Shown piece by piece: positions 3,849 through 44,400 of a DNA stretch of 64,000 bases. Both the position numbers and the translations under genes were made by a program. The notes beneath the pieces are model-generated. The model was given only the letters and a program-made list of their open reading frames with translations. It was not told the origin of the DNA and searched no databases. Source of the stretch: Rubricoccaceae bacterium (GTDB lineage: Bacteria > Bacteroidota > Rhodothermia > Rhodothermales > Rubricoccaceae); the NCBI GenBank assembly GCA_041748175.1, contig JBGTDU010000152.1, positions 1,465-65,464 on the forward strand. Reading direction: 5' to 3'. The stretch's first letter is position 1. Every line of letters begins with the position of its first letter.

Positions 3849-4709
3849 TTAGCAGGCTACGGTTTCGCCTTCCGTGGCGAGTACGGTGTTGGGGAAAATG
3901 GCTCGCGCGGAACGAAGTATCTCGGCTAGCTGGGCGTCGTCGTGGCCGGGGTCGTGGTGAAACAACGCCAGGCGCTTTACGCGCGCTGCGGCAGCTAGCC
4001 GCGCGGCTTTTTCCCACGTCGTGTGCCCCCATCCGGCGCACAGCGCGTATTCCTGCGGCGTGTACTGCCCATCACAGATTAGCAGGTCGGCGTCCTCAGC
4101 CACCCCGGCAAGGAGCGCGTCGAGCCGCGAATTTCCGTGCTCGTAGTCCGTGCAATAGACGACGGTGGCTCCACCAGCCTCGGCCTTGTATCCGAAAACG
4201 AACTGGGTATGGTGAACGGGGAAGGGCGTGACCGAGAGTTTGCCGAGCCGAATCGGCTTCCCGGCTTCCACGATGACTTGGTGCGTTTCGGCAACGAGGT
4301 CATCGAAGGCGAGGGGGAAAAAGGGCACACGCATCTGGAGTCTGAGCAGATCCAGTGGCTCACCATCGGCATCTGAACTATAGAAAGTGACCGTGTTGCC
4401 TAGGCCGAAAAGCGGTGCAAAGAACGGGATCGCCTGGATATGGTCCCAGTGAAAGTGCGACAGGAACACATGCAAGTCCAGCGGTTCGCCATTCGATTCT
4501 TCTAAGAGTTTCATCCCCAACTCGCGCGCCCCCGTACCGAGATCGAATATGCACCCCGTACCATCGTCCAGACTGACCTCTACACATGCGGTATTGCCTC
4601 CCGTTCCGATGTGCGAGGCGCCTGGCGTTGGGATAGAACCGCGGACGCCCCAAAAGCGGACGTACATCCTCTCTCGCTCCGCAATTGCGCTCGATGAAAC
4701 GTCCGTCAT
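3849..4709 (-). CDS. MBL-fold metallo-hydrolase
   Basis: HFHWDH metal-binding motif. MYVRFWGVRGSIPTPG N-terminal block typical of a beta-lactamase-fold hydrolase subfamily. An alternative start is the ATG at 4667. Confidence 0.8.
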   Translation of the reverse strand: MTDVSSSAIAERERMYVRFWGVRGSIPTPGASHIGTGGNTACVEVSLDDGTGCIFDLGTGARELGMKLLEESNGEPLDLHVFLSHFHWDHIQAIPFFAPLFGLGNTVTFYSSDADGEPLDLLRLQMRVPFFPLAFDDLVAETHQVIVEAGKPIRLGKLSVTPFPVHHTQFVFGYKAEAGGATVVYCTDYEHGNSRLDALLAGVAEDADLLICDGQYTPQEYALCAGWGHTTWEKAARLAAAARVKRLALFHHDPGHDDAQLAEILRSARAIFPNTVLATEGETVAC

Positions 4710-4717
4710 GGGCTTGA

Positions 4718-5749
4718 TTAGAGGCGGAAGCGGCGAAGCGTGATAACCGTCTCGACGATGATCACTTTCAGGACGGCCACTGCCGGAACAGCGAGAGCCA
4801 TTCCCAAAATGCCGCCGAGACGGCCGCCGATGAGGATGGCGAGTAAGACAGAAACAGGATGCAGCGACACGTTCCGCGCGGTAATCAAGGGCTGGAGCAC
4901 CACATTTTCCAGCGTCTGTACGATAGCGTAAACAACGACAATGCCGAGTAGCTGGCCAACACCGCCAGTGGCGAAAACGGAAACCGCGAGCGTTAGACCG
5001 GCGGAAATGATGAACCCGACGTACGGGATGAAATTGGCAATGCCAGTAAAGAATCCGAGCACAACAAAGTAGTCGACGCCGACGAGCCCTAGCCCAAGGA
5101 CTGTAGCCAAACCGACCAGAACGGCCACGAGCGATTGGCCGCGGAGATATCCGCCCAGATGATCATCGATCTTGTATAGAACGCCCATCGAGAACTCGAA
5201 GTAGCGGTTTGGTACCAGAGCGACCAGTTTCTTTTGAATCCGCGCGCCGTCTCGAAGAAGGAAGAACAGCACGAAGGGAATAACCACGAGGTTACCCACG
5301 ATAGACAGCGCGTCTGTCGCGTAGCCGAGCAGGTGGCTCTGCTGGGCTGCGAGGCTTTGCCGCGCAGAGTCCGAGAGCCCCAGGGAGCCCGGCTCGATAA
5401 AGGGAAGACGCGCGGCCACGTCCGCCTCAATCCGATCAAGCATCGTGTACAACCGGCCATCCCCCCATCCCTCATGCCACTCGACTGCTTGTGCGGCCAC
5501 GAGCGGAATCATTATCCAGCCCAACAACCCGAGGATAAGGGAGAGGCCGAAGAAGACCACGCTGGCGGACGCGGTTCGGCCCATTCCGCGCCGTTCGAGA
5601 TGGTTGACCAGCGGAAAAAGGAGGTAGCCGAAAATGGCCGCCACGAGGACCAAAATCAGCAGATCGCCAGCATGGATCACCAACAAACCGAAGGTGACGA
5701 TCACGAACAGCCAGAGAGCGGCCTTAAGCCAGGGGATCCGCGTCGTCAT
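4718..5749 (-). CDS. AI-2E family transporter (PerM/UPF0118-type permease)
   Basis: Polytopic membrane protein of about 340 aa with the family-typical C-terminal block PYVGFIISAG...LENVVLQPLI...HPV.VLLAILIGG.L.GILGM.LAVP. Confidence 0.8.
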   Translation of the reverse strand: MTTRIPWLKAALWLFVIVTFGLLVIHAGDLLILVLVAAIFGYLLFPLVNHLERRGMGRTASASVVFFGLSLILGLLGWIMIPLVAAQAVEWHEGWGDGRLYTMLDRIEADVAARLPFIEPGSLGLSDSARQSLAAQQSHLLGYATDALSIVGNLVVIPFVLFFLLRDGARIQKKLVALVPNRYFEFSMGVLYKIDDHLGGYLRGQSLVAVLVGLATVLGLGLVGVDYFVVLGFFTGIANFIPYVGFIISAGLTLAVSVFATGGVGQLLGIVVVYAIVQTLENVVLQPLITARNVSLHPVSVLLAILIGGRLGGILGMALAVPAVAVLKVIIVETVITLRRFRL

Positions 5750-6302
5750 CGGAGCTGGTGCGATCAGGCGCGGTGAGGTTCTCCCGGCCTGAGTTGGGAG
5801 CCTTGGCAGTGAGACGTTCGTGATCCTTGCGCATCGTTTCCAGCTCGTCGCTTACTTCCACGAGCCGGATGCCAACGAGGCGCGAGAGCGACAACAATAT
5901 CTTGACTCCGAGGCGCGGATTTCGGTCGAGCAGGCCGAGCAGGTCAGGTTGGAAAAGACTGAGAAGCAGGCAATCCGATTTGGCGCGCGCCGTTGCCGAT
6001 CGAATGACTTCGTTGAGCAACGCGATCTCGCCGAAGAAATCGCCGTCGCTGAGTTCAACCAGCTCCCGGCCCGAAGGCTCGCTCTGAATCGAGACGACGC
6101 CTTTGGCAATGATGTACATGCCCAGCCCCGGCTCACCCTCGACGAAAACAGACTCGCCAGCAACGTATTCACGCCGATGCAAAAGCCGCTGAAGCGTCGC
6201 AATGTCGCGGCGACTCAGATTGTCGAACAGGGGAATGCTGCGAAGGACACTCTCCTCCCCCTCCACCGTCCCACCCAACACGTTTCTCCAAAGGCTGTGC
6301 AT
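5724..6302 (-). CDS. Cyclic nucleotide-binding domain protein
   Basis: cNMP-binding beta-barrel signature FVEGEPGLGMYIIAKGVVSI ... GDFFGEIALL ... RSATARA. No DNA-binding HTH is visible. Confidence 0.8.
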   Translation of the reverse strand: MHSLWRNVLGGTVEGEESVLRSIPLFDNLSRRDIATLQRLLHRREYVAGESVFVEGEPGLGMYIIAKGVVSIQSEPSGRELVELSDGDFFGEIALLNEVIRSATARAKSDCLLLSLFQPDLLGLLDRNPRLGVKILLSLSRLVGIRLVEVSDELETMRKDHERLTAKAPNSGRENLTAPDRTSSDDDADPLA

Positions 6303-6490
6303 GGCAATAGTTGGTATTCACACGGACAGAATCCCCGACGGGCGGGACCAAATGAAGGTACGGTTCAGCGTCCGCTTGCGCATGAAGGCGGGTCGCTGGG
6401 CAAACTTCGGAGTTGAAAGGCCATTCATCTTGACCGGTGGGGTGGCTTTCGGTACCCTACGAGTCCATTCCATCTCGTCCGGTTGTCAAA

Positions 6491-7285
6491 ATGATCTCAT
6501 TCCGATTCCCGCTCCTCACCCTGGTCGTTGTCGGCCTTGGCATTGGTCTTTCGTCCTGCGACTCGGACTCGACGGTCCTTCCGCCAACGGACATAGCGTT
6601 TAATGGCGTGACCTACGCCGCAGTTGGCCAGGCCGACCTGGAGTTGACGAGCGATGGCCTCGTTGTTAGCAATATTGGCTCTTCGGGAAACGACGGAGTG
6701 CGCGTAGCTCCGACAAGCGCCATTGGAATGGCAGACATCCAGACCCTGCCCATCGACCTCCCTTCTGGAGGCCGGTGGGGGATGGAGGTGTTTGGTGAGA
6801 CGGGCTCGGGCAGTACCGGTATGGCTACCGTATGGAACGAAGCGGTGGATGGAGGCGAGGAAAGCATCCAGTTCGACTTCGCGCCTGAACTGAACGTGTC
6901 GGCCTTGATCCTTGAGTATTTTTTGGAGGGTCGGCTTCAGCATTCGGCGACCGTCCCTGCGAATGGAGCAGGCAATTTTTCGGCACGTCTTACGACGGCC
7001 GGAACCGGGGCTGGGAGACGTACCTCGGTCCATGTAATCTGCGTTGGCGGAGAGCTTATCGTCGCGACCGACAACAATGGCGATGCCCCACGGACTTTGC
7101 CCGGAGGATGCGGTGCGGAGTTGCTCACAGACGTCCCGGGAGCGGATGGGGCCATTTGTGCCGACTACGTCCAAGCCCGCCCAGTCACAGAATTGTCTTT
7201 CCCCGAGGTAACCAGTCTGCAAGTGACGGCACGGACAATCCCGCAGTTCACGATTACAGATGGTTCCGTCGAAGGGCATCAGTAG
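6491..7285 (+). CDS. Hypothetical lipoprotein
   Basis: Start moved to the ATG at 6491. Signal peptide plus lipobox MISFRFPLLTLVVVGLGIGLSSC. No recognisable catalytic motif. Confidence 0.6.
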   Translation: MISFRFPLLTLVVVGLGIGLSSCDSDSTVLPPTDIAFNGVTYAAVGQADLELTSDGLVVSNIGSSGNDGVRVAPTSAIGMADIQTLPIDLPSGGRWGMEVFGETGSGSTGMATVWNEAVDGGEESIQFDFAPELNVSALILEYFLEGRLQHSATVPANGAGNFSARLTTAGTGAGRRTSVHVICVGGELIVATDNNGDAPRTLPGGCGAELLTDVPGADGAICADYVQARPVTELSFPEVTSLQVTARTIPQFTITDGSVEGHQ

Positions 7286-7291
7286 GCTCGG

Positions 7292-7345
7292 GCACCCCCA
7301 AAAGAAACTTGGGGTGCACACCGATGCCTCATGCCGGGGCATCGG
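7292..7345. terminator. Two adjacent GC-rich hairpins between convergent genes (putative terminators)
   Basis: gcacccc(N12)ggggtgc at 7292-7317 and ccgatgcc(N9)ggcatcgg at 7321-7345. They lie between the + gene ending at 7285 and the - gene ending at 7365. There is no clear U-tract. Confidence 0.4.
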
Positions 7346-7364
7346 CAGCAAGCGTCCCGCAACC

Positions 7365-10300
7365 TCAAACGGGAAGGCCGATAACGAACTCGGCACCCAG
7401 GCCCTCCTGGCTTTCTACCCGCATGGTGCCACTGTGGCCTAGTGTTATGATTTCGTAGGAGAGCGAGAGCCCAAGGCCCGTTCCCTGTCCCGAAGGCTTT
7501 GTCGTAAAGAAAGGCTCGAAGATCTTCTGGCGGACGTTGTCGGGAATACCCACTCCGTTGTCGGCAACGCGGATTTCGACGGCGTTTACGCTCCGTTTCG
7601 TCGAGACGGAAACCGTCGGTTTGAATCCATCTCCTCGCGACTTCGATGCTTCGTGGACGGCGTAGAATGCGTTGCCCATCAGGTTGATGAGTACACGCCC
7701 AATCTCTTGCGGAATCAGTTCAACCTCGCCCGCTTCAGGATCGAAATCGTACGCCATGTCGACGTTAAAATCGATATCGCGAGCACGCTGGCCGTGGAAG
7801 GCGAGGTTAGCATATTCCTCGACAAAGTCGTTGATGTCCACCGCCGACCGCTCGGCGGCACCGCCGCGCGAGTGTTGAAGCATCGCATGCACGATTTTGT
7901 CGGCGCGTTGCCCGTGATGGTGAATGCGACGAGCGTTTTCCTTAAGATCTCCGATGAGTTCGTTCAGCTCGGGCAATGCCTCGGCGACTGTCCGCTCTGG
8001 ATCTGCCATCAATTCCTCGGTCAGTTCGTCGGCGAGGTCCACGCTCAGTTCGGCGAAGTTGTTGACAAAGTTGAGAGGGTTCTTGATCTCGTGCGCAATA
8101 CCAGCCGTCAACTGCCCCAGCGACGCGAGTTTTTCTGCCTGGATCAGCTGGCCTTGCGTTGTGGTGAGGTGTCGATGGCTTTCTTCCAACGCTGAATAGG
8201 CTTTCTCCAACGCGTGGGCCTGTTCAAGCTCGGCAGCCTTTCGCTCGTTTTCGATTTTAAGGACCTTGGCCTCGGCTTCCGCCATTTCCGCCCGCAATTC
8301 TGCCTCGCGGCGCTCAGCCTTGGCGCTTTCTTCGCGAAGAAGCCGACGGCGCTGAAACCTGTCCGCGACAAACACAAGCCCACCGAAAATCAACGCGTAG
8401 AACGCGTAGGCCCAAACGGTGCGCCACCACGGTGGCGCGACATGGACGCTGATGGCAAGCGGTTCTTCGGTCCAGATCCCGTCCGCGCTCGCTGCCTTGA
8501 CCCGAAGCGTATATCGTCCGGGGTCGAGGCCGGTGTACACCGCCCGGCGCTCCAGGCCCAGATCTCGCCACTCGTCCTCCAGCCCCTCGAGCATGACGGC
8601 GTACCGGTTGCGGCCGGACTCGGTAAAGTGAAGCGCCGCGAACTCGAAGGTGACGACGGTATGGTCGTGGTCGAGGTAGACGACATCGGTGGTTGGCGCT
8701 GCTTCCCGCAACGCAGCGTTTTCGCCTGGGACCACCTCTAGTCCCAAGATCTGGACGCCGGTGAGTGATACCTGCGGCGGGTAGGGGTTCGACGTTGCAA
8801 TTTGTGACGGATCGAATGAGATGAGTCCATCAGCTCCTCCGAAAAACAAGGCACCACTTGGCGAACCGAACGACGCGTCTGTGAGCGACCTGAGTCCAGG
8901 AGTACGTTCGCTGTCAAAGACACGGAAAGTTTCGGTGACGGGGTCGAAGCGTGCGAGGCCGCGGCTCGTGCTGAGCCACAGAAAGCCCGAGGCGTCTTCG
9001 ACAATCGCCCGCACCACATTGCTGGGCAAGTCACTGTTTGTCTCCGAATAGACGGTAAAGCCATTTTCAGGGTTCTCGGGCGAGAACAGGTTTAGGCCCC
9101 CCCCCTCGGTCCCGATCCACAACCGCCCGTTGCTTTGGGCGTGCAAGGCCAGCACGGAGTTGTCAGACAGACTGGCGGCGTTGGCGGGATCATGCCGAAA
9201 GTGATCGAAGGAGCCGCCTCGTGCTCTATCTCGCAACCGGTCCAGGCCACCGCGCGTGCCGAACCAAAGGGATCCGTCGGGCATCTCTTCGATTGCTTCA
9301 ATCGTCTCGTGGCTAAGGCTCGCCGGGCGGGCGGAATCGCGGAGAATCTTTTCATTGGAGCCCGTCTGCGGATCATGAAGGATCAGTCCGTTGCCAAGAC
9401 TACCAACCCAGAGCTGCCCGGTGCTGTCCTCAAGGATGGCGGATACGACCTCACCATCGAGCACAATGTGCCGGAACGAGCGTGCGCTCCGGTTGAATTC
9501 CAGAAGGCCGGCGCGCGTACCCACCCACAGCTGCCCGGACTCGCTCTCGCACAGTGCCGTGATGAACTCCTGCCCTCCATTTAGTGCCCCGGTTGGTAGA
9601 AATCGCTCGAACACCCCATCGTTATTGCCAAGCCGACTGAGCCCATCATCGGTGCCTACCCACAGTGTGCTGTCGGCTGTTTGAATGACAGAGAGCACGG
9701 TGTTGCTGCTAAGGCTGTGATCCTGTTCGCTGTCATGGGTGTAAACCTTGAACGAACTTCGAGCCTGATCGAACCAGTTGAGGCCACCATACGTGCCAAC
9801 CCAAAGGATGCCCTGTCTATCCCCCATGATCGTTCGTACGAAGTTGTGGCTCAGCGCGTCCTCGCGGTTCTCATCCGGCTGGTAGCTGACCTGGTAGTTG
9901 TCCGCGTCCAGTTTGTGGAGCCCCCCACCCGCCGTGCCGATCCAGAGGCTGCCATCCGGATCTTCGAACAAAGATGTGATGATCGTTGCCCCGATGCCTC
10001 CTTCCAATTCGACAGGCTGAAACGAGTCCAGGGTTGGGTCAAGGCTTCGAACACCGCCACCGTAGGTGCCGATCCACAAGCCGCCGCGTTCTCTGGAAGT
10101 GATGACAGAGATAATGTTGCCGGGCGAATTATCGGCAACCTGAAGCGACGTAAAGCTCCCGGACTCGTGGTCGAACCGATTGAGGCCGCCGCCATTTGTG
10201 CCTACCCAGAGCGTTCCCTCCTCGTCAGCGTAAAGAGAGAGCACAACATCGTGGGTTAGTGAGGCACTATTCCCCGCGGCGTGTTTGTACGTGGTGAAAA

Positions 10301-10808
10301 GGCCGGTGTCATCGTCGAGGCGAGCCAATCCCGCGTCGGTGCCGATCCACATCGTTCCGTCTTGCTGTTGAGCGAGGGCGTTGATGTCGTCGTTGGGGAG
10401 GCTGCCGGGGATGTCAGGATGGTGGCGGAAGCGCGAAAACGTCTCCGTGGCTGGGTCGAACCGATTGAGACCACCATCGGATGTTCCGACCCAAATGTAT
10501 CCGTCGGCATCTTCGAGCAACGCGAGCACCCCGTTGGCCGAGATCGTCGTGCTGTCGTCATCGGCATTGCGGAATTCGGTCACCGCGTACCCATCAAAAC
10601 GGTCGAGGCCATCCAGGGTACCAATCCAGATGAACCCGCGTTCATCCTGCAGCAGGGCATTGATTTTCTCCTCCGACAGCCCATCCTCTACAAAGAGATG
10701 TTGGAAGGAAATGGTCTGTGCAGATCCGCTTTCAGCCCGAACCAGAGCGAGCCCAATCGCAAGAAAGGCAGCCATGCGAGCGAGCAGCGGAGGGAGGCCG
10801 AGGCGCAT
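7365..10808 (-). CDS. Sensor histidine kinase with periplasmic double beta-propeller (Reg_prop repeats) and Y_Y_Y-type region
   Basis: About 14 repeats of the W(I/V)GT..GL.RFD type. One TM segment ([20 protein letters not shown]), then a coiled coil. HisKA block [13 protein letters not shown] and HATPase_c block [10 protein letters not shown]. Start set at 10808 ([22 protein letters not shown]) to avoid overlapping the upstream stop at 10819; the ATG at 10841 is the alternative. Confidence 0.88.
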
Positions 10809-10818
10809 CGAACTCGGG

Positions 10819-12246
10819 TCAGGCGGTGGCTTTTGCCGCACCCGCCAGACGAAGGCGGTCCAATTCCTCGGACGCCTCGTCGGAAGCGGACGTTATACGA
10901 ATTGTGAGCATGGGGCCACCCACGCTGGTTGTTTCGGCAGACACAACTTTCGCGTATACGTCCTCGAACTCGCCGTCCGAGATCATAGGAATGGAAAGTT
11001 TGATGTCGGTCCGCTCAGCAACGGGCCGGGCCGTGAGCACAACCGCCTGTGTCGGCGATAAGCGGACGATCTCCGCCTTGAGACTGTCGTCGGCGATCTC
11101 CTTACCGTCGAGAACCATATAGGTGCACGAGAGCGGCACGGTGAGCGCCGTGAGTGGGTCCGACGTCGTTTGCGGAAGCTCCAGATTGTAGTCGCCGCCA
11201 ACGCCGGTTACGAAGTGCACGAGGATGCGTTCGACGAAGCCCTTCATGGCCACCTCTTGCGACGAGCCTATCCGAACACTGTCGCCTACTTTTTCTCGCG
11301 TGGTCGTGGAGATCACCACCTCGCCGGACGCGGCCAGGGCCTGGATGCGGCTCGTGAGGTTGACCGGGCTGCCGACGACCCCATACTTCGCTCTCTTCTC
11401 TGAGCCAATGTTTCCCACAACGACTTCTCCGGTATTCACCGCCACGCCCATTTCAAGTGCGCCAAGCCCACGGCGGAGCATCTCTTCGTTTACGTCCGTC
11501 ATGGCACACTGCATGGCAACGGCGCAGGCAACGGCTCGCTCGGCATGGTCGGCTCGCTGGATCGGCGCGCCAAAGATTACGAGGATCGCGTCGCCGATAA
11601 ATTCGTCGATCGTCCCCCCATACTCGTCAATGACGTCCGTCATGCGTCCCAGATAGGCGTTGAGGAGTTCCACGACGCGCTCGGGTTCCAGCCTCTCCGA
11701 GAGTGCCGTAAAACCACTGAGGTCGCTCATCAACACGCTTACCTCACGCCGCTCGCCGCCGAGGGCCAGCGAATCGGTATCGGCGAGAACGGCTTGGGCC
11801 ACTTCATCCGAGAGGTAGCGCCCGATTGCCTGGCGGACAAACACGGCCTCTCGCTCACGGCCAACCACTTCGCGCGCGTTGTTCAGCGTCACCTCCAGAT
11901 CCGAGAGATCGATTGGCTTGGTAAGAAAGTCGAATGCACCTTTGTTCATGGCCGTGCGGATGTTCTCCATGTCACCGTACGCCGTCACGACAATAGCCTT
12001 GTGCTGAAACTCGCGCTCTCTAAGGCGCCCGAGGAGCGTGAGTCCGTCCATCCTGGGCATGTTGATATCCGTGACGACAATCTCTATCCCCGGATTCAGC
12101 TCCAGCTTTTCGAGCGCATCGACGCCATCCGCCGCGAATTCAAGCTCGAAGAGACCATCCCGAACATGCCGCCGAAATTTCTGGCGGATGAGCGGAGCGA
12201 GGTCCGGCTCGTCGTCAACAAAGAGGATTTTGAGTACGGCCTCCAT
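10819..12246 (-). CDS. Response-regulator receiver fused to a class III adenylate/guanylate cyclase domain, with a C-terminal extension of unknown function
   Basis: REC block [10 protein letters not shown]...[12 protein letters not shown]. Cyclase blocks [31 protein letters not shown] and [16 protein letters not shown]. Start at the ATG at 12246 ([12 protein letters not shown]). The last ~120 aa are beta-rich and unassigned. Confidence 0.87.
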
Positions 12247-35213: not shown

Positions 35214-35663
35214 ATGAGCCGCATCATACACGTCGGCGATACACCGGCCAAACGCCGCAACGGGCACATCCGAAGCTGTGCGGAAGTGATCCGCCTTCTT
35301 GCCCAACATCCCAGCCTCAATTCCGGTGCCTTTGACGGTGAGGCGCGGGACATGATGGCGTTTCTGGTCTTCAGTCTGCGTGGGATCGAGGAAACCATCG
35401 AGACTAGCGCGCAGGCCTGGGACGACCGGAACTACTGGAAGAAATCGGAGAAACTCCGTGACGACTGGCGGTGGACGCGCAAAACCGCCGACCAACTGGA
35501 AGCCCTGATGTTGGACGACCGCTGGCTGGAGATTCCGGTCATTCTCATCGAACTGGTTCCGCGCTTTCACGCGGTTACGATCACAAAGATGATGCGCGAT
35601 AGCGACTGGTGGGTGGGCGCCTACAGCGCGATGGTCAAGACAGCGAGCAAGGCCCTGAATTGA
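35214..35663 (+). CDS. Hypothetical protein (149 aa)
   Basis: Clean ORF with coding-like composition. No family recognised. Confidence 0.55.
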   Translation: MSRIIHVGDTPAKRRNGHIRSCAEVIRLLAQHPSLNSGAFDGEARDMMAFLVFSLRGIEETIETSAQAWDDRNYWKKSEKLRDDWRWTRKTADQLEALMLDDRWLEIPVILIELVPRFHAVTITKMMRDSDWWVGAYSAMVKTASKALN

Positions 35664-36112
35664 ACGAACTGCAAGTATTTCCAGCGTACGCCTTCACGAC
35701 GCAGCAGCGGGACACCAAGACTTTCATTCTTGACGAGGTCCGCCGCCAATGGGTCCGTCTCACGCCGGAAGAGTGGGTTCGGCAGCATCTGCTCCGCGCA
35801 CTCTTCGATCTCGGCTACCCGCGTAGTCTGACGGCCGTCGAAAAGAGTTTCGAGTATCTCGAGCGCACGTGGCGCGCCGATGTCGCCGTATTCGACCGCC
35901 ATCATCAGCCACTTCTCCTGGCGGAGTGCAAGGCACCGCACATTCCCGTGACCGCTGCGGTTTTCGATCAGATTGCAAGGTACAATGTCGTTATCAAATC
36001 CCACTCGCTCCTTGTGACGAACGGTCATATTCTCTATTTCGGAACGGTGGAGGATGGCACGATAAAGTTTCTCGATGCCATTCCTCCATACGATTCGATT
36101 GTGATCGCGTAG
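35660..36112 (+). CDS. Type I restriction enzyme HsdR N-terminal domain-containing protein (stand-alone PD-(D/E)xK-like domain)
   Basis: VRLTPEEWVRQHLL...YPRSLTAVEKSF......RADVAVFD....PLLLAECKAP fits the stand-alone HsdR_N family common in Bacteroidota. The TTG at 35660 overlaps the upstream stop (TTGA). The tracked ATG at 35609 is the alternative. Confidence 0.75.
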   Translation: MNELQVFPAYAFTTQQRDTKTFILDEVRRQWVRLTPEEWVRQHLLRALFDLGYPRSLTAVEKSFEYLERTWRADVAVFDRHHQPLLLAECKAPHIPVTAAVFDQIARYNVVIKSHSLLVTNGHILYFGTVEDGTIKFLDAIPPYDSIVIA

Positions 36113-36195
36113 CGTTTGCTGTCCTCGCCGTTAACTCGTTTCTTGCGGCAAGCAGAAAATCAGACCCATCAATTTCACCCGCGTCGTTGCCCGAA

Positions 36196-38100
36196 ATGAG
36201 CAGCCCATCCATTCCCGATCGCCTTGCAACCCTTCTCGAACGGACGCCGCCGTTCGAGCTGTTGGAGGACAAGGAACGCCGCGCCCTGGTTGGTTCGATG
36301 ACTGTTGAGTTCTTCGAGCCTGGCGCCGTGATTCTCGAACAGGGGGTGGACGTCCATCGCTCGCTGTATTTGGTGGAGGAAGGCCTTGTTCGGCTGATGA
36401 ACATTGAGGAGAAGCGGCTGATAGACATGTGCGGGGCACCTTCCCAGTTTGGGTCGTACGGGATCCTCCAGGGTGGCATCTTGCCTTATGAAGCGCGGGC
36501 AGTGGAGCAAAGCTCATGCGCCCTGATCCCCGCGGAGATCTTCCGTACGCTGCTCAAATCGAACGACGCATTCGCGGCGTACTTCGATGAAGACATCAAG
36601 CGCTATGTCCGAACCATCGACACCGCTCTCGATGCCTCCGGTGCCTTTCTGCTATTCGATACGGAGCTTTCGCGCCTGAGCCGGGCGGCCGTCCTCGTGG
36701 CTCCGGCCACTCCGATTCGCGACGTGGCGCAGGCCATGAAGGATGCCGACGCCGACACCGTGGTCGTCGTTGAAAACGGCGCGCCATTGGGCGTCATCAC
36801 CGAAGGCGACATTGTCGAGAAGGTGGTAGCTGTCGGCCAATCCAGCGAGATGGTTGCTATGCAACTGGTGGACCGGCCAGCCATTGCACTTGATGGCTCG
36901 GAGCGTCTTTTCGACGCCGTTCAAACCATGATGCGAAATCGTATCCGGCGGATTGTGGTGATTAACAAATCCCCCGAGGCCGACGAATCACCCTTGGGAA
37001 TCCTGACCGCTGAGGACGTGAGCCACTACCGTGGGCTCGATCCTGTTGCGACCATCGAGCTCATCGAGCGCGCCCGTTCGGTGAAGGCGCTAGCGGCACT
37101 GCGAGGCGAATCCAACCGTCGGATGCTTCGGCTCTACCAGCAAGGGGTGCAAAGTGAAGACCTCCTCGGCGTCGTTGCAGAACTCGATGACCAGATCAAA
37201 CGACGCCTACTACACATTGTAGAGCAGCAATCACGCGAAGAGAATCCAGGTGCGGTTGTGGATTTGCCGTGGGGGTGGCTGTCGTTTGGGACGGCGGGGC
37301 GCAAGGAGTCGACAATGCGTGCGCATCAGCACAACGGCCTCGTCTACGCGAACCCGACGGACGCACGCGAGGCGGAATTGGCGACGGCGTGGTTTAACCT
37401 GCTTGCTGAGAGATTCTGCGAGGCACACGCGGCGTGCGGTTTCATTCCTTCCGGCACGGGAATTCTTGCCATGAACGAGGCGTTTTGCCAACCGCTCGCG
37501 AAGTGGCAAGAGATGTACGCGCACTGGGCTCAAGGCGTCGACGCGCCGGTGACCGCCAGGGCCGCGACCACGTTCGATGCGCGCCTTCTACATGGCGAAG
37601 AGGCCCTCGGCGAGACCATACAGTCCACGATTGGAGAACATGCGTCCAACCCACGGCTTCTTTCCATTCTCGTCAGCCAAGGCGCCGAGATCAACGTCCC
37701 GCTTTCTGTGTTTGGTCGCTTCCAGCTTGAGCGCAACGAGGACGAGCAGGAAGGCTTTGACGTTCGGATGAGAGGTCTTCGCCCCGTCGTCGATTTTGCC
37801 CGCGCATTGGCGCTGGAGATTGGCTATCTGAAGTCGGCGAATACGTTCGACAGGCTTCGAGCGGTTGAAGCCTCGAAGAGCTTGTCGGTCGCGGAAGCGA
37901 AAGCGTTGCTCCCGGCCTTCCGCACGCTCACCGACCTCCACCTCCGCCTTCAGATGCAGGCCACCGAAGTCGGCGAGGCACCATCCGATTGGATGGACCC
38001 CGGCAAGCTCCACAAGAGCCAGCAAAACCTGTTGAAGGACACGCTGAAGACGATTCAGAAAGTTCAGCAGTCGCTGGCTAGTAGGTATGTGCAGCGGTAG
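36196..38100 (+). CDS. Signal-transduction protein with cNMP-binding, tandem CBS and DUF294 nucleotidyltransferase domains
   Basis: Start at the ATG at 36196; the 109 aa upstream in the tracked ORF overlap the preceding gene. cNMP block FFEPGAVILEQG...RLM. CBS pair (VAPATPIRDVAQAMKDADADTVVVVENGAPLGVITEGDI..., RRIVVIN...PLGILTAEDV). DUF294 block WLSFGTAGRKESTMRAHQHNGLVY, plus a DUF294_C-like tail. Confidence 0.85.
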   Translation: MSSPSIPDRLATLLERTPPFELLEDKERRALVGSMTVEFFEPGAVILEQGVDVHRSLYLVEEGLVRLMNIEEKRLIDMCGAPSQFGSYGILQGGILPYEARAVEQSSCALIPAEIFRTLLKSNDAFAAYFDEDIKRYVRTIDTALDASGAFLLFDTELSRLSRAAVLVAPATPIRDVAQAMKDADADTVVVVENGAPLGVITEGDIVEKVVAVGQSSEMVAMQLVDRPAIALDGSERLFDAVQTMMRNRIRRIVVINKSPEADESPLGILTAEDVSHYRGLDPVATIELIERARSVKALAALRGESNRRMLRLYQQGVQSEDLLGVVAELDDQIKRRLLHIVEQQSREENPGAVVDLPWGWLSFGTAGRKESTMRAHQHNGLVYANPTDAREAELATAWFNLLAERFCEAHAACGFIPSGTGILAMNEAFCQPLAKWQEMYAHWAQGVDAPVTARAATTFDARLLHGEEALGETIQSTIGEHASNPRLLSILVSQGAEINVPLSVFGRFQLERNEDEQEGFDVRMRGLRPVVDFARALALEIGYLKSANTFDRLRAVEASKSLSVAEAKALLPAFRTLTDLHLRLQMQATEVGEAPSDWMDPGKLHKSQQNLLKDTLKTIQKVQQSLASRYVQR

Positions 38101-38196: not shown

Positions 38197-38409
38197 TCAG
38201 GCGCTTGGCCGTATCGGATTGTTCTGCCTCCGTCCCAGGGTCGATGATCCGCGCGACAACTTGCGGCCTCCATTCGGTGCAACAACCGTGAGCCAGCGGT
38301 ACTCGCCCAGCGGGATGTCATGCTTTGTAACGAGGCCGAGCTTCTCGGCATGAAAGGCTAGGGCGTTGTCCTGATCGTCTACGAAGATGCTGGCAACACG
38401 GATTTGCAT
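38197..38409 (-). pseudogene. Truncated VOC/glyoxalase-family gene remnant
   Basis: From the ATG at 38409 the sequence reads MQIRVASIFVDDQDNALAFHAEKLGLVTKHDIPLGEYRWLTVVAP, a typical VOC N-terminal half-domain. After that it degenerates into low-complexity sequence and stops at 71 aa. I could not find the rest of the fold in any of the three minus frames. Confidence 0.55.
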
Positions 38410-38416
38410 GGGTCTG

Positions 38417-38899
38417 CTAGTCCTCTTCAGGCAGCGAGTTCCACATGTCGTGCGCGATGCGCCAGACGCCATCCGGGTCGCGCTGCCAGACGACGAGGTA
38501 CTTTCCTCGAAAAGGCGGGCGCTCCACGCCATCCTGCGTTATCGCGCCCTCGAAATAACCCCAGTCGTAGGCCATATCTCCCTCGACCCTGAGCTCTTCA
38601 GGTATGGCTTGATGATGCGTGACCACGCGGCCTTCCGGCAGTGCCCACAATTCCAAAAGGGCATCATGCCCACGAATGAAATCCCGCCCGCCCGGCGCGG
38701 CTATTCCGTCCTCTGCATACACGGCCACCAGCGCTTCGATGTCTCCGGCCATGTAAGCGTCCGACAAGGCTCGCGACTGAGCGAGGATGGCGGTGATGTC
38801 TTCGGTGGGGCCTTCGTGGATGGGGGTGGGTTGGGCAGATACACTCCCAAATAACAAAAGGAAGCAGATGAAGGCGTAGAGCGTTCGCATGGGCAACAT
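38417..38899 (-). CDS. SnoaL-like/DUF4440 (NTF2-fold) protein with signal peptide
   Basis: Signal peptide MLPMRTLYAFICFLLLFGSVSAQ. The pattern AYMAGDIEALVAVYAEDGI ... GKYLVVWQRDPDGVWRIAHDMWN is typical of the DUF4440/SnoaL family. Confidence 0.75.
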   Translation of the reverse strand: MLPMRTLYAFICFLLLFGSVSAQPTPIHEGPTEDITAILAQSRALSDAYMAGDIEALVAVYAEDGIAAPGGRDFIRGHDALLELWALPEGRVVTHHQAIPEELRVEGDMAYDWGYFEGAITQDGVERPPFRGKYLVVWQRDPDGVWRIAHDMWNSLPEED

Positions 38900-38944
38900 A
38901 GAAGGGATAAAAGCGCGATTTTGAAAAGCGACTACTTAATGCTA

Positions 38945-39853
38945 CTAAGGCATATCAAACGTGATGGAAACAGCGCTTGACATTGGCCGAGTCTTCTGGC
39001 TCATTAGCCGTGTCATGTGGAGGAAGTGTGGCGACTCGTCAATCAAGCCTTCTTTGCAATCCAGCATCAAGTCTCCAGCAAAGTGTTCAAGCCTCCATCC
39101 CGCCGTGTTGGGTTCAGCTAGAAACTCACCGCCAAGTAGGTATTTCAGGTCGGCGTAGGAGGGGATGTAGTTTTTCGCTTTCTCGACAAGGGCGATATTG
39201 AGGGAATCCATAGGCACGACCCTACACCCCACATCATTGTCGCCCAATTCCGGATACCCACCGATCAGCGGCATTCTAATTTTGTGAGGTATGCACAATG
39301 GGTTGTAGAACAAATAATACATCTTCATATCATATCGAGATTGGAAAGAGGTCATCGCCTGCTGTTGGTCACTCTCTTTCTTAAATGCTTGATAGCGCGA
39401 TTCCTCACTGAAGGAAAGGTCTCTTGCCTGAATTAAATCGTTGTGTTCATGCTCAGCAACAATTAAGCGACCAAGCCCCATTCTCCTCCAGTCTGAGTCT
39501 TCTTCCTCGTGCTCGAGTGGCGCGGCGTATAGTCTCTTCGACTGAAGAAACGCCATCTTGCTTCTGATCACTTTTCCGCGGCGGCGAAAAACGATCATCA
39601 GTGCAATATCCGCTACTTCCCAAGTACCGAAATGTCGACCACCTCCAATAAAGTGCGCGTCAACTCGGACCGTCCAATCGGATGGAAAAAATACAGGTCC
39701 CTGAATTCCGGCAAAGTAGGACACGAAGCGCATATCGAGCGGCTCTTCGTGCATGCCAGGCCACGCAGAGAGGTCATAGGCCAGCTTACGGTTGCAACTT
39801 TCGAAATGTGCCTTGATGAACTCTCTTACATCGTCAGGAACTCGAATCTGCAT
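38945..39853 (-). CDS. Orphan hypothetical protein (302 aa) in a visibly AT-richer segment, with a possible PD-(D/E)xK-like nuclease motif
   Basis: Long clean ORF in a segment with AT-rich runs atypical of the window. The segment HEEPLD ... RVDAHFIGGG ... WEVADIALMIVFRRRGKVIRSKMAFLQSKRL has the E / D / (Q)xK spacing of restriction-endonuclease-like folds. No family recognised. Confidence 0.65.
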   Translation of the reverse strand: MQIRVPDDVREFIKAHFESCNRKLAYDLSAWPGMHEEPLDMRFVSYFAGIQGPVFFPSDWTVRVDAHFIGGGRHFGTWEVADIALMIVFRRRGKVIRSKMAFLQSKRLYAAPLEHEEEDSDWRRMGLGRLIVAEHEHNDLIQARDLSFSEESRYQAFKKESDQQQAMTSFQSRYDMKMYYLFYNPLCIPHKIRMPLIGGYPELGDNDVGCRVVPMDSLNIALVEKAKNYIPSYADLKYLLGGEFLAEPNTAGWRLEHFAGDLMLDCKEGLIDESPHFLHMTRLMSQKTRPMSSAVSITFDMP

Positions 39854-39926
39854 GGCAGCTTATTTCACATCTGAGAGTGGTAACACGTCAAATTACAGAC
39901 AGAAGTCATTCAGGCAGGCAGATTGG

Positions 39927-40070
39927 TCACGCCTCCCCACCCTCCGCCATCACGGCTCCATTCGTCGCCGCGGCCTCTTCCGGTGAGACGTCCGTCGTAA
40001 GACTAACCCCGCCGCCGGGTGCAGTCTCAATCAGCACCGTGTCGCCGTCGCGGACGAAACCGGCGAGGAT
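39927..40070 (-). pseudogene. Detached, diverged copy of the clpB 3' end (last ~47 codons plus stop)
   Basis: Aligns without gaps to 40870-41013, with about 18 mismatches in 144 nt by hand count. Encodes ILAGFVRDGDTVLIETAPGGGVSLTTDVSPEEAAATNGAVMAEGGEA*, compared with the ClpB end ILAGFVRDGDTVLIDAATGGGVTLTTEVSPEEAAEMNGAMMAKGGEA*. The tracked 62-aa ORF 39927-40115 contains it. Confidence 0.85.
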
Positions 40071-40114
40071 TCTATCGTATGCTGGGACCGCGTCTCTGAT
40101 TTGGGGTGGAGCCA

Positions 40115-40501
40115 TTAGCTATTCAAGAGGTTGTTTACAAGTTTGACTAAGGCTACAACTTCGGCAGTAAGCCGAGCCCGGTTTTCTAGCACCGCACCGG
40201 CCCCAAGCGCTTCGTAGCGAAAGTTGACCGCGAAGGCATTGAGCCGGACTAGTGATCGAAACGACTTAGCGTCTGAACCCGCGTCTTCCAGAAGACCGAG
40301 CAAAACATTAAGATCGTGCGTGCGGGGATACGCAATGTGTTGAAACGACAACCATGCTTTGAGCGCTTTCTCAACGGCTTGCTGAGCATGGAACCCCGCG
40401 ATCTCATCCGCGAACGAATCCTCATCGTCCATCGCAATCAGCGCTCGGAGATCCCGATTTGCAGCCTCCAGCAGTGCGATTGCATGGGCGCGGTCGCTCA
40501 T
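40115..40501 (-). CDS. HEPN domain protein (putative toxin of a MNT-HEPN pair)
   Basis: 128 aa and all-helical. Has FHAQQAVEKALKA and YPRTHDL blocks typical of the HEPN (PF05168-like) family. 4-nt overlap with the upstream nucleotidyltransferase gene. Confidence 0.8.
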   Translation of the reverse strand: MSDRAHAIALLEAANRDLRALIAMDDEDSFADEIAGFHAQQAVEKALKAWLSFQHIAYPRTHDLNVLLGLLEDAGSDAKSFRSLVRLNAFAVNFRYEALGAGAVLENRARLTAEVVALVKLVNNLLNS

Positions 40502-40839
40502 GCCAGCGCGCGATCGTACATAACCTTCCCCTCTCTCATGGCCCGCGCGACAACGTGATTTGTGGTTGCAGACCAGCGTTTCACCTCATCGGTTGTGTAG
40601 ACCAACAAGTCTGTCGGCGTCCGGAAAGGGGCCAGCACTTTCCATAGGCGCGTCATTTCTTTCAACCGCGCGCGTTCGTCACGAAAAGGACCATCCTCGA
40701 CAATCAGGAAATCCACGTCTGAGTCGTCTTTAGCACTACCCGTGGCCTGAGAGCCAAATAACACGATGCAACGTGGGCTTGACGCCGCGACGAGCGCGTC
40801 CGTCATCGCCTGGATTTTGTCTGAATGTCCTGGTTCCAT
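40498..40839 (-). CDS. Minimal nucleotidyltransferase (MNT) domain protein (putative antitoxin of a MNT-HEPN pair)
   Basis: IVLFGSQATGSAKDDSDVDFLIV is the pol-beta NTase G-S ... DxD signature. 113 aa. Gene order MNT then HEPN, with an ATGA-type overlap. Confidence 0.82.
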   Translation of the reverse strand: MEPGHSDKIQAMTDALVAASSPRCIVLFGSQATGSAKDDSDVDFLIVEDGPFRDERARLKEMTRLWKVLAPFRTPTDLLVYTTDEVKRWSATTNHVVARAMREGKVMYDRALA

Positions 40840-40869
40840 CGGAATACTCGGAATTACCGAAATATAGAC

Positions 40870-43539
<2,670 letters not shown>

Positions 43540-43908: not shown

Positions 43909-44400
43909 ATGGGCTTCCTCTCCGACCTGAAAAATAATCTCACCGGCTCGTGGGCAGATGTCTCCGTGACGGCCACGCCAGCCACGCGCGGCCAATCGAC
44001 CACGATTACCGTGCATGTCAACGTGAAGGACAATGCCATCGAAATTAACAAGGTGACGGCAAAGGTCCAGTGCATCGAGATCGTTGAGGTTCACAACGTC
44101 CGGACGACGAGCGCGGTAGGTTCATCTTCGCAGGCAAAAATTGGGCAACCCAGCCCTCCAGCAACGAGCGGAACCGCGAAGGCGACGGAGAACCTTTTTG
44201 ATCAGGAGGTGCCGGTTGCTCAGGCTCAGCAGCTTGCGGCAAATTCGCAGCAGAGTTTCGAGGCCACGTTTCAGATTCCGGCCCATCTTCCGCCATCGTT
44301 CACGGGCCGCAATGCGCGGATCGAATGGAAGGTGATGGCGGCGGTTGACATGAAGGGCAACGACCCGGATAGCGGCTGGCAGGTATTCGAGGTTTGCTAG
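43909..44400 (+). CDS. Hypothetical protein, possibly an arrestin/Spo0M-like beta-sandwich
   Basis: N-terminus MGFLSDLKNNLTGSWADVSVTATPATRGQSTTITVHVNVK resembles SpoOM-family starts. The assignment is tentative. Confidence 0.5.
   Translation: MGFLSDLKNNLTGSWADVSVTATPATRGQSTTITVHVNVKDNAIEINKVTAKVQCIEIVEVHNVRTTSAVGSSSQAKIGQPSPPATSGTAKATENLFDQEVPVAQAQQLAANSQQSFEATFQIPAHLPPSFTGRNARIEWKVMAAVDMKGNDPDSGWQVFEVC

Follow-up and report, generated by a model that had tools for sequence, protein, structure and literature searches.

Mrr and DpnI are solitary modification-dependent restriction enzymes (type IV or type IIM) in which a PD-(D/E)xK part is combined with a second region, whilst Shedu is an anti-phage system with a PD-(D/E)xK nuclease domain and the resolvase Hjc acts as a dimer. 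The canonical PD-(D/E)xK active site has an Asp at the N-terminus of core strand 2 and a Glu-x-Lys on strand 3, and variants with a relocated Glu include EcoO109I, in which the Glu comes before the Asp ('E-PD...x-x-K'; Steczkiewicz et al., PMC3424549). Here we analyse ORF302, an open reading frame (ORF) of 302 codons in a 64,000-nucleotide (nt) stretch of DNA from a Rubricoccaceae bacterium (contig JBGTDU010000152.1, positions 1,465 to 65,464; 'the window'), the product of which probably belongs to the PD-(D/E)xK superfamily, being nearest to Hjc in shape and to the EcoO109I variant in motif arrangement. The gene is real, foreign, conserved, partner-less and mobile. The combined statement, that this is a mobile PD-(D/E)xK nuclease with a role in defence, we put forward tentatively, as falling a little short of probable. 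The gene and the spacer ahead of it are as follows.

38945..39853, minus strand: ORF302, a complete gene with an ATG start and 302 codons plus stop, member of an unnamed family of stand-alone proteins.
39854..39926, minus strand: 73-nt spacer 5' of ORF302, presumably holding the gene's own expression signals, of which none was detected.

Judged by its homologues, ORF302 is certainly a real gene under selection, since 168 relatives were retrieved at E ≤ 1e-3 from a collection of 5.8 billion proteins and 376 matches were found among representatives clustered at 50% identity (265 of them at E ≤ 1e-10, with identity down to approximately 25–30%); the term 'orphan', used for it in an earlier, sequence-only reading of the window, therefore has to be dropped. 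Nearly all of the 120 relatives listed are 298–330 amino acids (aa) long and 45–72% identical over their full length, and none is named; look-ups of the clusters likewise yielded neither a name nor an accession. Mean column identity is 53% in an alignment of the closer family and 28% in a diverse alignment of 79 members. When 185,579 species representatives were scanned for three short peptide patterns conserved in the family, which gives a lower bound, at least 17 carriers came to light, including Gammaproteobacteria, Bacteroidota, Cyanobacteria, Verrucomicrobiota, Acidobacteriota and Planctomycetota, and further copies lie on plasmids of Rubrobacter (Actinomycetota), Rhizobium and Methylobacterium, such that the family is present in at least seven phyla (Acidobacteriota, Bacteroidota, Cyanobacteria, Proteobacteria, Verrucomicrobiota, Planctomycetota and Actinomycetota). 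The copies on three metagenome contigs (L074, L075 and L081) match only from residue 65 on, although the contig extends upstream; these lack the helix that bears the invariant E36 described below and may be truncated remnants or a shorter variant. The sequence-only reading had recognised no family, and this held in Pfam, NCBIfam, PADLOC, PHROGs and PDB sequences, none of which contained a match to the ORF302 protein.

AlphaFold2 (AF2) models of the window protein (model 1, with 42 sequences; predicted local distance difference test score, pLDDT, 90.2; predicted template modelling score, pTM, 0.90) and of the 45% identical homologue P0120 (model 2, with 60 sequences; pLDDT 87.7, pTM 0.88) have the same architecture, with a core that runs in both as helix 36–48, strands 61–68, 81(83)–91 and 94–107, helix 162–174 and strand 178–183. 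This predicted alpha-beta-beta-beta-alpha-beta core has the element order of PD-(D/E)xK enzymes, and along the gene the protein divides into the following parts.

39764..39853, minus strand (residues 1–30): long N-terminal helix (7–30) with conserved C20-N21, from the model and conservation.
39533..39763, minus strand (residues 31–107): putative catalytic half of the nuclease core, from the model, the invariant columns and PMC3424549.
39371..39532, minus strand (residues 108–161): family-specific 55-residue insertion leading from core strand 3 to core helix 2.
39299..39370, minus strand (residues 162–185): core helix 2 (162–174, with the invariant Q163), core strand 4 (178–183) and Y183-N184-P185.
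38948..39298, minus strand (residues 186–302): conserved C-terminal region of alpha/beta type, for which no relative was detected.

Across the 79 diverse members no more than seven columns are invariant (E36, D82, K99, Q104, K106, Q163 and P185), whilst D40, G70, E79, Y154, Y180, Y183 and R211 are conserved in at least 90% of them. E36 opens core helix 1 (36–48), which also bears D40, strand 61–68 bears R63 and D65, and the Gly-rich loop 69–80 (IGGGRH), modelled at low confidence in both cases, bears E79. D82 is the second residue of core strand 2 (81–91) and K99, Q104 and K106 are all on strand 94–107; given the hairpin turn at 92–93, the secondary structure suggests that residue 82 pairs with approximately residue 103, with Q-x-K facing D82. 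With the invariant K106 on the third strand and the near-invariant E79 ahead of D82, the predicted arrangement fits the EcoO109I variant, the acid position of (D/E)-x-K being taken by an invariant Gln (Q104). The acidic residue, D82 and Q104-x-K106, in which the sequence-only reading had seen a nuclease-like motif, are all amongst these few invariant columns. The insertion consists of two short helices and one strand, with a conserved Y154, and its pLDDT falls to 53–84, whereas the C-terminal region, for which Foldseek gave no local match in PDB or BFVD, retains conserved G209-C210-R211, G252-W253, E256, D272-S274-P275 and T298-D300. From the predicted topology and the motif, a PD-(D/E)xK core in the ORF302 protein is likely rather than demonstrated.

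Archaeal Hjc resolvases were the sole family to recur among the top PDB matches of the two models, taking 10 of the first 50 Foldseek places with model 1 and 13 of 50 with model 2, with template modelling (TM) scores normalised to Hjc of up to 0.48 and 0.57, respectively. The source archaea were A. fulgidus, S. tokodaii, P. furiosus and S. solfataricus, and the structural matches listed also included a haloarchaeal-virus Hjc-type resolvase (in BFVD) and EcoRV. Hjc (PDB 1gef, 2wcw, 2eo0 and 1hh1), itself of the PD-(D/E)xK superfamily, has the same core order as the ORF302 model (helix, three strands, helix, strand), and its sequences share with the ORF302 family a common succession of a Glu on helix 1, an Arg in strand 1, a Gly/Ser-rich loop, the strand-2 Asp and x-K. 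The E-x-K of Hjc strand 3, however, has Gln for Glu in the ORF302 family; Hjc is approximately 125–145 aa long, compared to 302 aa, and lacks both the 55-residue insertion after strand 3 and the unique 117-residue C-terminal region; and Hjc is a core archaeal gene, whereas the ORF302 family is bacterial, mobile and sporadic. Membership of the Hjc family proper was rejected on its size, the lack of a Pfam match and a negative profile comparison using hhalign (see below). The ORF302 protein is thus outside the Hjc family, as it is outside every Pfam restriction-enzyme family and every PADLOC system.

In EcoO109I-type active sites a second acid stands just before the strand-2 Asp, and ORF302 likewise has E79-V-A-D82 followed by Q104-S-K106 in a protein of a size typical of type II enzymes, yet it has no sequence or structural match to EcoO109I. 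A type II restriction-modification (R-M) enzyme is adjoined by its cognate methyltransferase, whereas none is conserved beside the ORF302 family in a set of 106 loci (the window and 105 related loci); the only loci with methylases near the family gene are L019 and L027, in which these are part of, or stand alongside, other systems, and the window has none. Enzymes of the Mrr/DpnI type are comparable in organisation, since ORF302 is likewise a single gene for a protein in the range of about 250–300 aa with no methyltransferase partner, and the family is likewise frequent in restriction and defence islands. It differs from them in that Pfam relates it neither to Mrr_cat nor to another restriction-enzyme family, and in its putative catalytic part being N-terminal, with no recognisable DNA-binding or modified-base-binding domain. 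With the single-gene or nuclease-based systems in PADLOC-DB, Shedu amongst them, ORF302 has in common that it encodes a candidate nuclease effector and that its family occurs both in defence islands and on mobile elements, but unlike them it matches no model (0 families at E ≤ 1 in PADLOC-DB v2.0.0) and has no partner gene.

The explanation that we favour is that the ORF302 protein would be a stand-alone, cytoplasmic, metal-dependent DNA endonuclease of PD-(D/E)xK fold with a core of archaeal Hjc type. Its active site would comprise E36 on core helix 1, E79-x-x-D82 at the start of strand 2 and Q104-x-K106 on strand 3, a variant with a second acid ahead of the Asp as in EcoO109I, and K99, R63, R90 and the Gly-rich loop at 70–74 would probably aid by binding the phosphate backbone. 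Cleavage would be Mg-dependent and act on DNA, whilst the insertion (108–161) and the C-terminal region (186–302) would set substrate choice or regulation, the C-terminal region possibly by recognising the substrate. The enzyme would work without a dedicated methyltransferase, antitoxin or ATPase, and because none of these is conserved beside the gene, the host would be spared either through substrate specificity, with modified or otherwise foreign DNA as the target in the manner of type IV and type IIM enzymes, or through activation only on infection. The gene would arrive as cargo of integrative elements and plasmids and often be lost again, and its most likely role would be that of a solitary restriction-like defence nuclease. 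In its most specific form, this would be an undescribed single-gene anti-phage or anti-plasmid system, in which a partner-less Hjc-like E-D-QxK nuclease, with its insertion and C-terminal region as a new sensor or specificity module, has spread as cargo across at least seven phyla, a proposal that we consider possible but doubtful.

That ORF302 was horizontally acquired is well supported, because its composition is atypical, its distribution patchy, and members of the family are found in a three-recombinase element, an integrative and conjugative element (ICE) and plasmids. In agreement with the sequence-only reading, which had placed the gene in the most AT-rich stretch that it noticed in the window and had suggested acquisition, the guanine-plus-cytosine (GC) content of ORF302 is 0.494 against a window mean of 0.590 (standard deviation, SD, 0.024 in 909-nt windows), that is 4 SD below the mean, and only 0.3% of the 909-nt windows are as low, every one of them overlapping ORF302. 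The lowest of the 64 1-kb bins (0.504) is that at 39001–40000. GC at third codon positions (GC3) is 0.554 in ORF302 compared to 0.80 in clpB, 0.71 in the DUF4440 gene and 0.67–0.70 in two other genes. The drop in GC begins and stops at the borders of ORF302, which is a one-gene compositional island between the host-like clpB and DUF4440 gene. A similar bias was seen elsewhere, with the family gene exceeding its flanks in AT content in 15 of 17 genome loci and in 71 of the 83 loci with at least 2 kb of flank (mean −5.3 GC points, the loci not being de-duplicated).

All-versus-all BLAST of the flanking ORFs revealed no conserved partner gene, either in 18 loci (E < 1e-8) or in all 106 (E < 1e-6), and amongst the immediate neighbours in the 106 loci nothing recurred at E < 1e-2 beyond lineage-level synteny, the sole recurrent class of neighbour beyond such synteny being tyrosine recombinases (L017, L020, L035/L089, L064 and L099). 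In L020 (JGI 3300072920, Ga0643154_000779) the N-terminal and C-terminal fragments of one yhcG/DUF1016 gene enclose three tyrosine recombinase genes in tandem, together with the family gene and two small unknown ORFs (4324–9891), in a compact integrative element of the recombinase-in-trio type that has the family gene as cargo. L089 has the same sequence as L035, a 'viral' contig of IMG/VR; at 6685–11884 an integrase gene precedes the family gene, after which come an unknown gene and one for a TraG/VirD4 type IV coupling protein, and the region resembles an ICE and not a phage. In Rubrobacter the plasmid copy lies between a Phd/RelE pair and a Tn3 transposase, and insertion sequence (IS) elements are near the gene in L001, L021 and L026. 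Of the 106 copies, up to 17 carry a frameshift or an interruption or are cut short at a distance from contig ends, some of them maybe through assembly errors. Large ATPases upstream of the gene in L001 and L028 were considered as a recurrent partner and rejected, being unrelated to each other and to the other neighbours. The L028 protein is a 1019-aa SMC/AAA_21-like ATPase, the gene for which (4217–7273) ends 67 nt before the family gene (7343–8245) on the same strand; the two could form an operon, in what looks like a local arrangement only. L028 also carries RteC, a protein of Bacteroides conjugative transposons.

These locations also bear on another reading, namely that the nuclease serves the mobile elements themselves, in resolving or processing junctions or as a selfish gene of homing or addiction type, and is left behind as cargo when the elements decay. 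The best structural matches of the protein are Holliday-junction resolvases, tyrosine recombinases are the sole recurrent neighbour class, the gene directly follows an ICE integrase in one case and is enclosed in the three-recombinase element in another, single-gene insertions between housekeeping genes occur, and many copies are degraded. Against this, genes for a recombinase, a transposase or conjugation are missing from the vicinity of most copies, and in the window ORF302 showed neither flanking repeats nor a target-site pattern. Phages commonly carry resolvases and homing nucleases, yet a collection of 50,697 phage records contained no match to the family, and the protein, with its 302 aa and its extensive unique C-terminal region, is far bigger than resolvases of Hjc type. 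We consider such an element-serving role rather unlikely.

A defence role is, suggestively, the best fit to the contexts in which the family is found. We read 15 of these gene by gene (the window, L019–L022, L025–L033 and L089), and approximately seven contained defence, R-M or toxin–antitoxin genes within 8 kb, some four of these being multi-system islands, counts that have no matched background. L019 holds a type III R-M system, DUF4411, a UvrD helicase, a SIR2-nSTAND NTPase and GmrSD, whilst L022 has HEPN_AbiV, a KAP NTPase and AbiEii. In L027 there are a type I R-M system, a C5 methylase, Fic and HicB, in L032 a PLD-like protein, an AAA protein and an ATPase with a UvrD helicase, and in L029 MazEF and DUF433. 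The 116 neighbours at 16 genome loci included matches to models for AbiLi (3), AriA-like (4), LmuB (2), PtuA-like (2), Abi_alpha (2) and Type_ISP_C (1). As to the sequence-only reading, which had proposed a defence candidate, the proposal gains from the several homologues in multi-system restriction and defence islands and loses from others that lie beside housekeeping or metabolic genes.

A number of results weigh against a nuclease with a role in defence. As regards defence, the family gene is also found with FtsZ (L003), YidC (L010), an FGGY kinase (L013), peptidases (L016 and L064), a giant cadherin-like protein (L025) and metabolic genes on a Rhizobium plasmid (L033); the defence counts, made with no background comparison, are suggestive only; the PADLOC-DB search was empty; and the identity of 45–60% across phyla is unusually high for defence genes. 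As regards the nuclease, Foldseek gave nothing significant against PDB (best E 0.58 and 0.68 for the two models) or against BFVD, the family profile gave only noise at E of approximately 1 against PDB sequences, and the 79 diverse members, each searched singly against Pfam, gave only scattered single chance matches. Compared by hhalign with an alignment of four Hjc sequences from PDB, the family scored a probability of 0.3%, the sole aligned part being the helix-2 segments, which was not significant. The acid of the canonical (D/E)xK is replaced by the invariant Q104, the predicted clustering of the invariant residues in space derives from the geometry of the hairpin alone, and the core topology also turns up in unrelated folds (PMC3424549). 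The PD-(D/E)xK core proposed in the sequence-only reading hence stands in topology and motif, from the two AF2 models, but not in significant similarity, and the recurrence of Hjc amongst the Foldseek matches has no counterpart in the hhalign profile comparison.

The points that concern the nuclease would be accommodated if the protein were not a nuclease at all, the core being a look-alike (a 'Russian-doll' effect) and its invariant E, D, Q and K serving other chemistry or ligand binding; the conserved GGGRH loop, for example, which is modelled at low confidence, could bind a nucleotide or a second messenger. The invariant residues, however, are predicted to lie on the three canonical elements in canonical order and register, the aligned Hjc sequences likewise have a Gly/Ser-rich loop ahead of their catalytic Asp, and the only structural neighbours to recur are genuine PD-(D/E)xK enzymes, which come from four species, EcoRV being listed in addition. 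We judge a look-alike fold to be unlikely, and more clearly so than an element-serving nuclease.

A third possibility is that the protein is an accessory DNA repair or recombination nuclease for the host chromosome, a bacterial structure-specific enzyme resembling Hjc. The Hjc-like core and the strong full-length sequence conservation would suit this, as would copies beside clpB (in the window), FtsZ and YidC and the HhH-GPD glycosylase genes found within 8 kb in two loci. A presence in as few as the 17 or more species representatives detected, a consistently foreign composition, frequent pseudogenisation, plasmid and integrative-element locations and the lack of any synteny conserved across lineages all argue the other way, making this reading improbable.

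The neighbours of ORF302 on the clpB side bear on how the locus was assembled, and Pfam confirmed the nucleotidyltransferase (MNT) and HEPN genes there as well as the DUF4440/SnoaL-like gene on the other side.

39927..40115, minus strand: detached duplicate of the clpB 3' end (62-codon ORF, outside ORF302), with a repeat copy at 39929–40070.
40115..40839, minus strand: MNT-HEPN pair (MNT 40498–40839, HEPN 40115–40501; outside ORF302), between the clpB-tail repeat copies.

ORF302 is separated by 73 nt from the stop of the detached clpB-tail ORF (39927) and by 45 nt from the start of the DUF4440 gene (38899), and in these two gaps, the strand shared with MNT-HEPN, the length of 302 aa and the peptides it quoted from the translation the sequence-only reading was accurate throughout. 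A direct repeat of 142 nt, 89% identical, is present at 39929–40070 and 40872–41013; it duplicates the last 47 clpB codons and brackets MNT-HEPN exactly, and no third copy bounding a larger island with ORF302 was found. GC3 is 0.61 in MNT and 0.57 in HEPN compared to 0.80 in clpB. The pair looks like a mini-island that integrated in the 3' end of clpB, bringing a tail copy that made the reading frame whole again, and no integrase remains. Because it lies exactly between two duplicated clpB 3' ends, MNT-HEPN is a separate insertion, before which clpB was therefore followed, after 73 nt, by ORF302. That ORF302 is a third component or effector of the MNT-HEPN cassette, or a toxin paired with the DUF4440 gene, is a reading that the shared strand and close spacing in the window invite and that is effectively refuted, since no MNT, HEPN or DUF4440 neighbour recurs in the other 105 loci, MNT-HEPN came as an insertion of its own, and the DUF4440 gene is host-like (GC 0.60, GC3 0.71) and encodes a protein with a signal-peptide-like N-terminus. 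The position beside MNT-HEPN, which the sequence-only reading had counted in favour of defence, accordingly lends no support, recurring in no related locus.

A second family member near clpB was found in an Acidobacteriaceae metagenome-assembled genome (L017, CAWCHO010000003.1), where a remnant of 50 residues (54–103; 62% identical) at 8001–8150 lies approximately 770 nt past the clpB stop, in an orientation opposite to that in the window. A tyrosine integrase (4612–5523) and an IS91/Y2 transposase (5253–6713) lie 2–3 kb from this remnant, and the ClpB proteins of L017 and the window are approximately 58% identical. Insertions may land repeatedly in the region after clpB, which two cases suggest and do not establish. 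A scan of 38300–41000 for sigma-70-like promoters and intrinsic terminators detected neither, and an Rfam scan around ORF302 was empty or gave noise.

Elsewhere in the window a stand-alone 167-aa HSDR_N_2 protein is encoded at 35609–36112 on the plus strand, HSDR_N_2 being the N-terminal domain of type I restriction R subunits and itself nuclease-like. Just downstream on the same strand is a gene with cNMP-binding, CBS and DUF294 nucleotidyltransferase domains (35869–38100), the true start of which is probably further downstream, the mechanically called ORF overlapping the HSDR_N_2 gene. Upstream of clpB, the plus-strand gene at 43909–44400 encodes a 163-aa protein with weak matches to arrestin N/C and Spo0M domains, pointing to an arrestin-like beta-sandwich.

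If our favoured explanation of ORF302 as a solitary PD-(D/E)xK defence nuclease is true, the family would be a compact (approximately 300 aa), well-conserved group of nucleases, unnamed and with no entry in Pfam, NCBIfam, PADLOC or PHROGs, through which the list of defence-island genes would gain a new solitary effector and the PD-(D/E)xK superfamily a new active-site variant. The family would also raise the question of how a partner-less nuclease spares its host. Solitary accessory or defence genes of nuclease type are familiar in general, whilst this family itself is both unnamed and widespread, and the confident model, the seven invariant residues and the small size of the protein make it directly testable.

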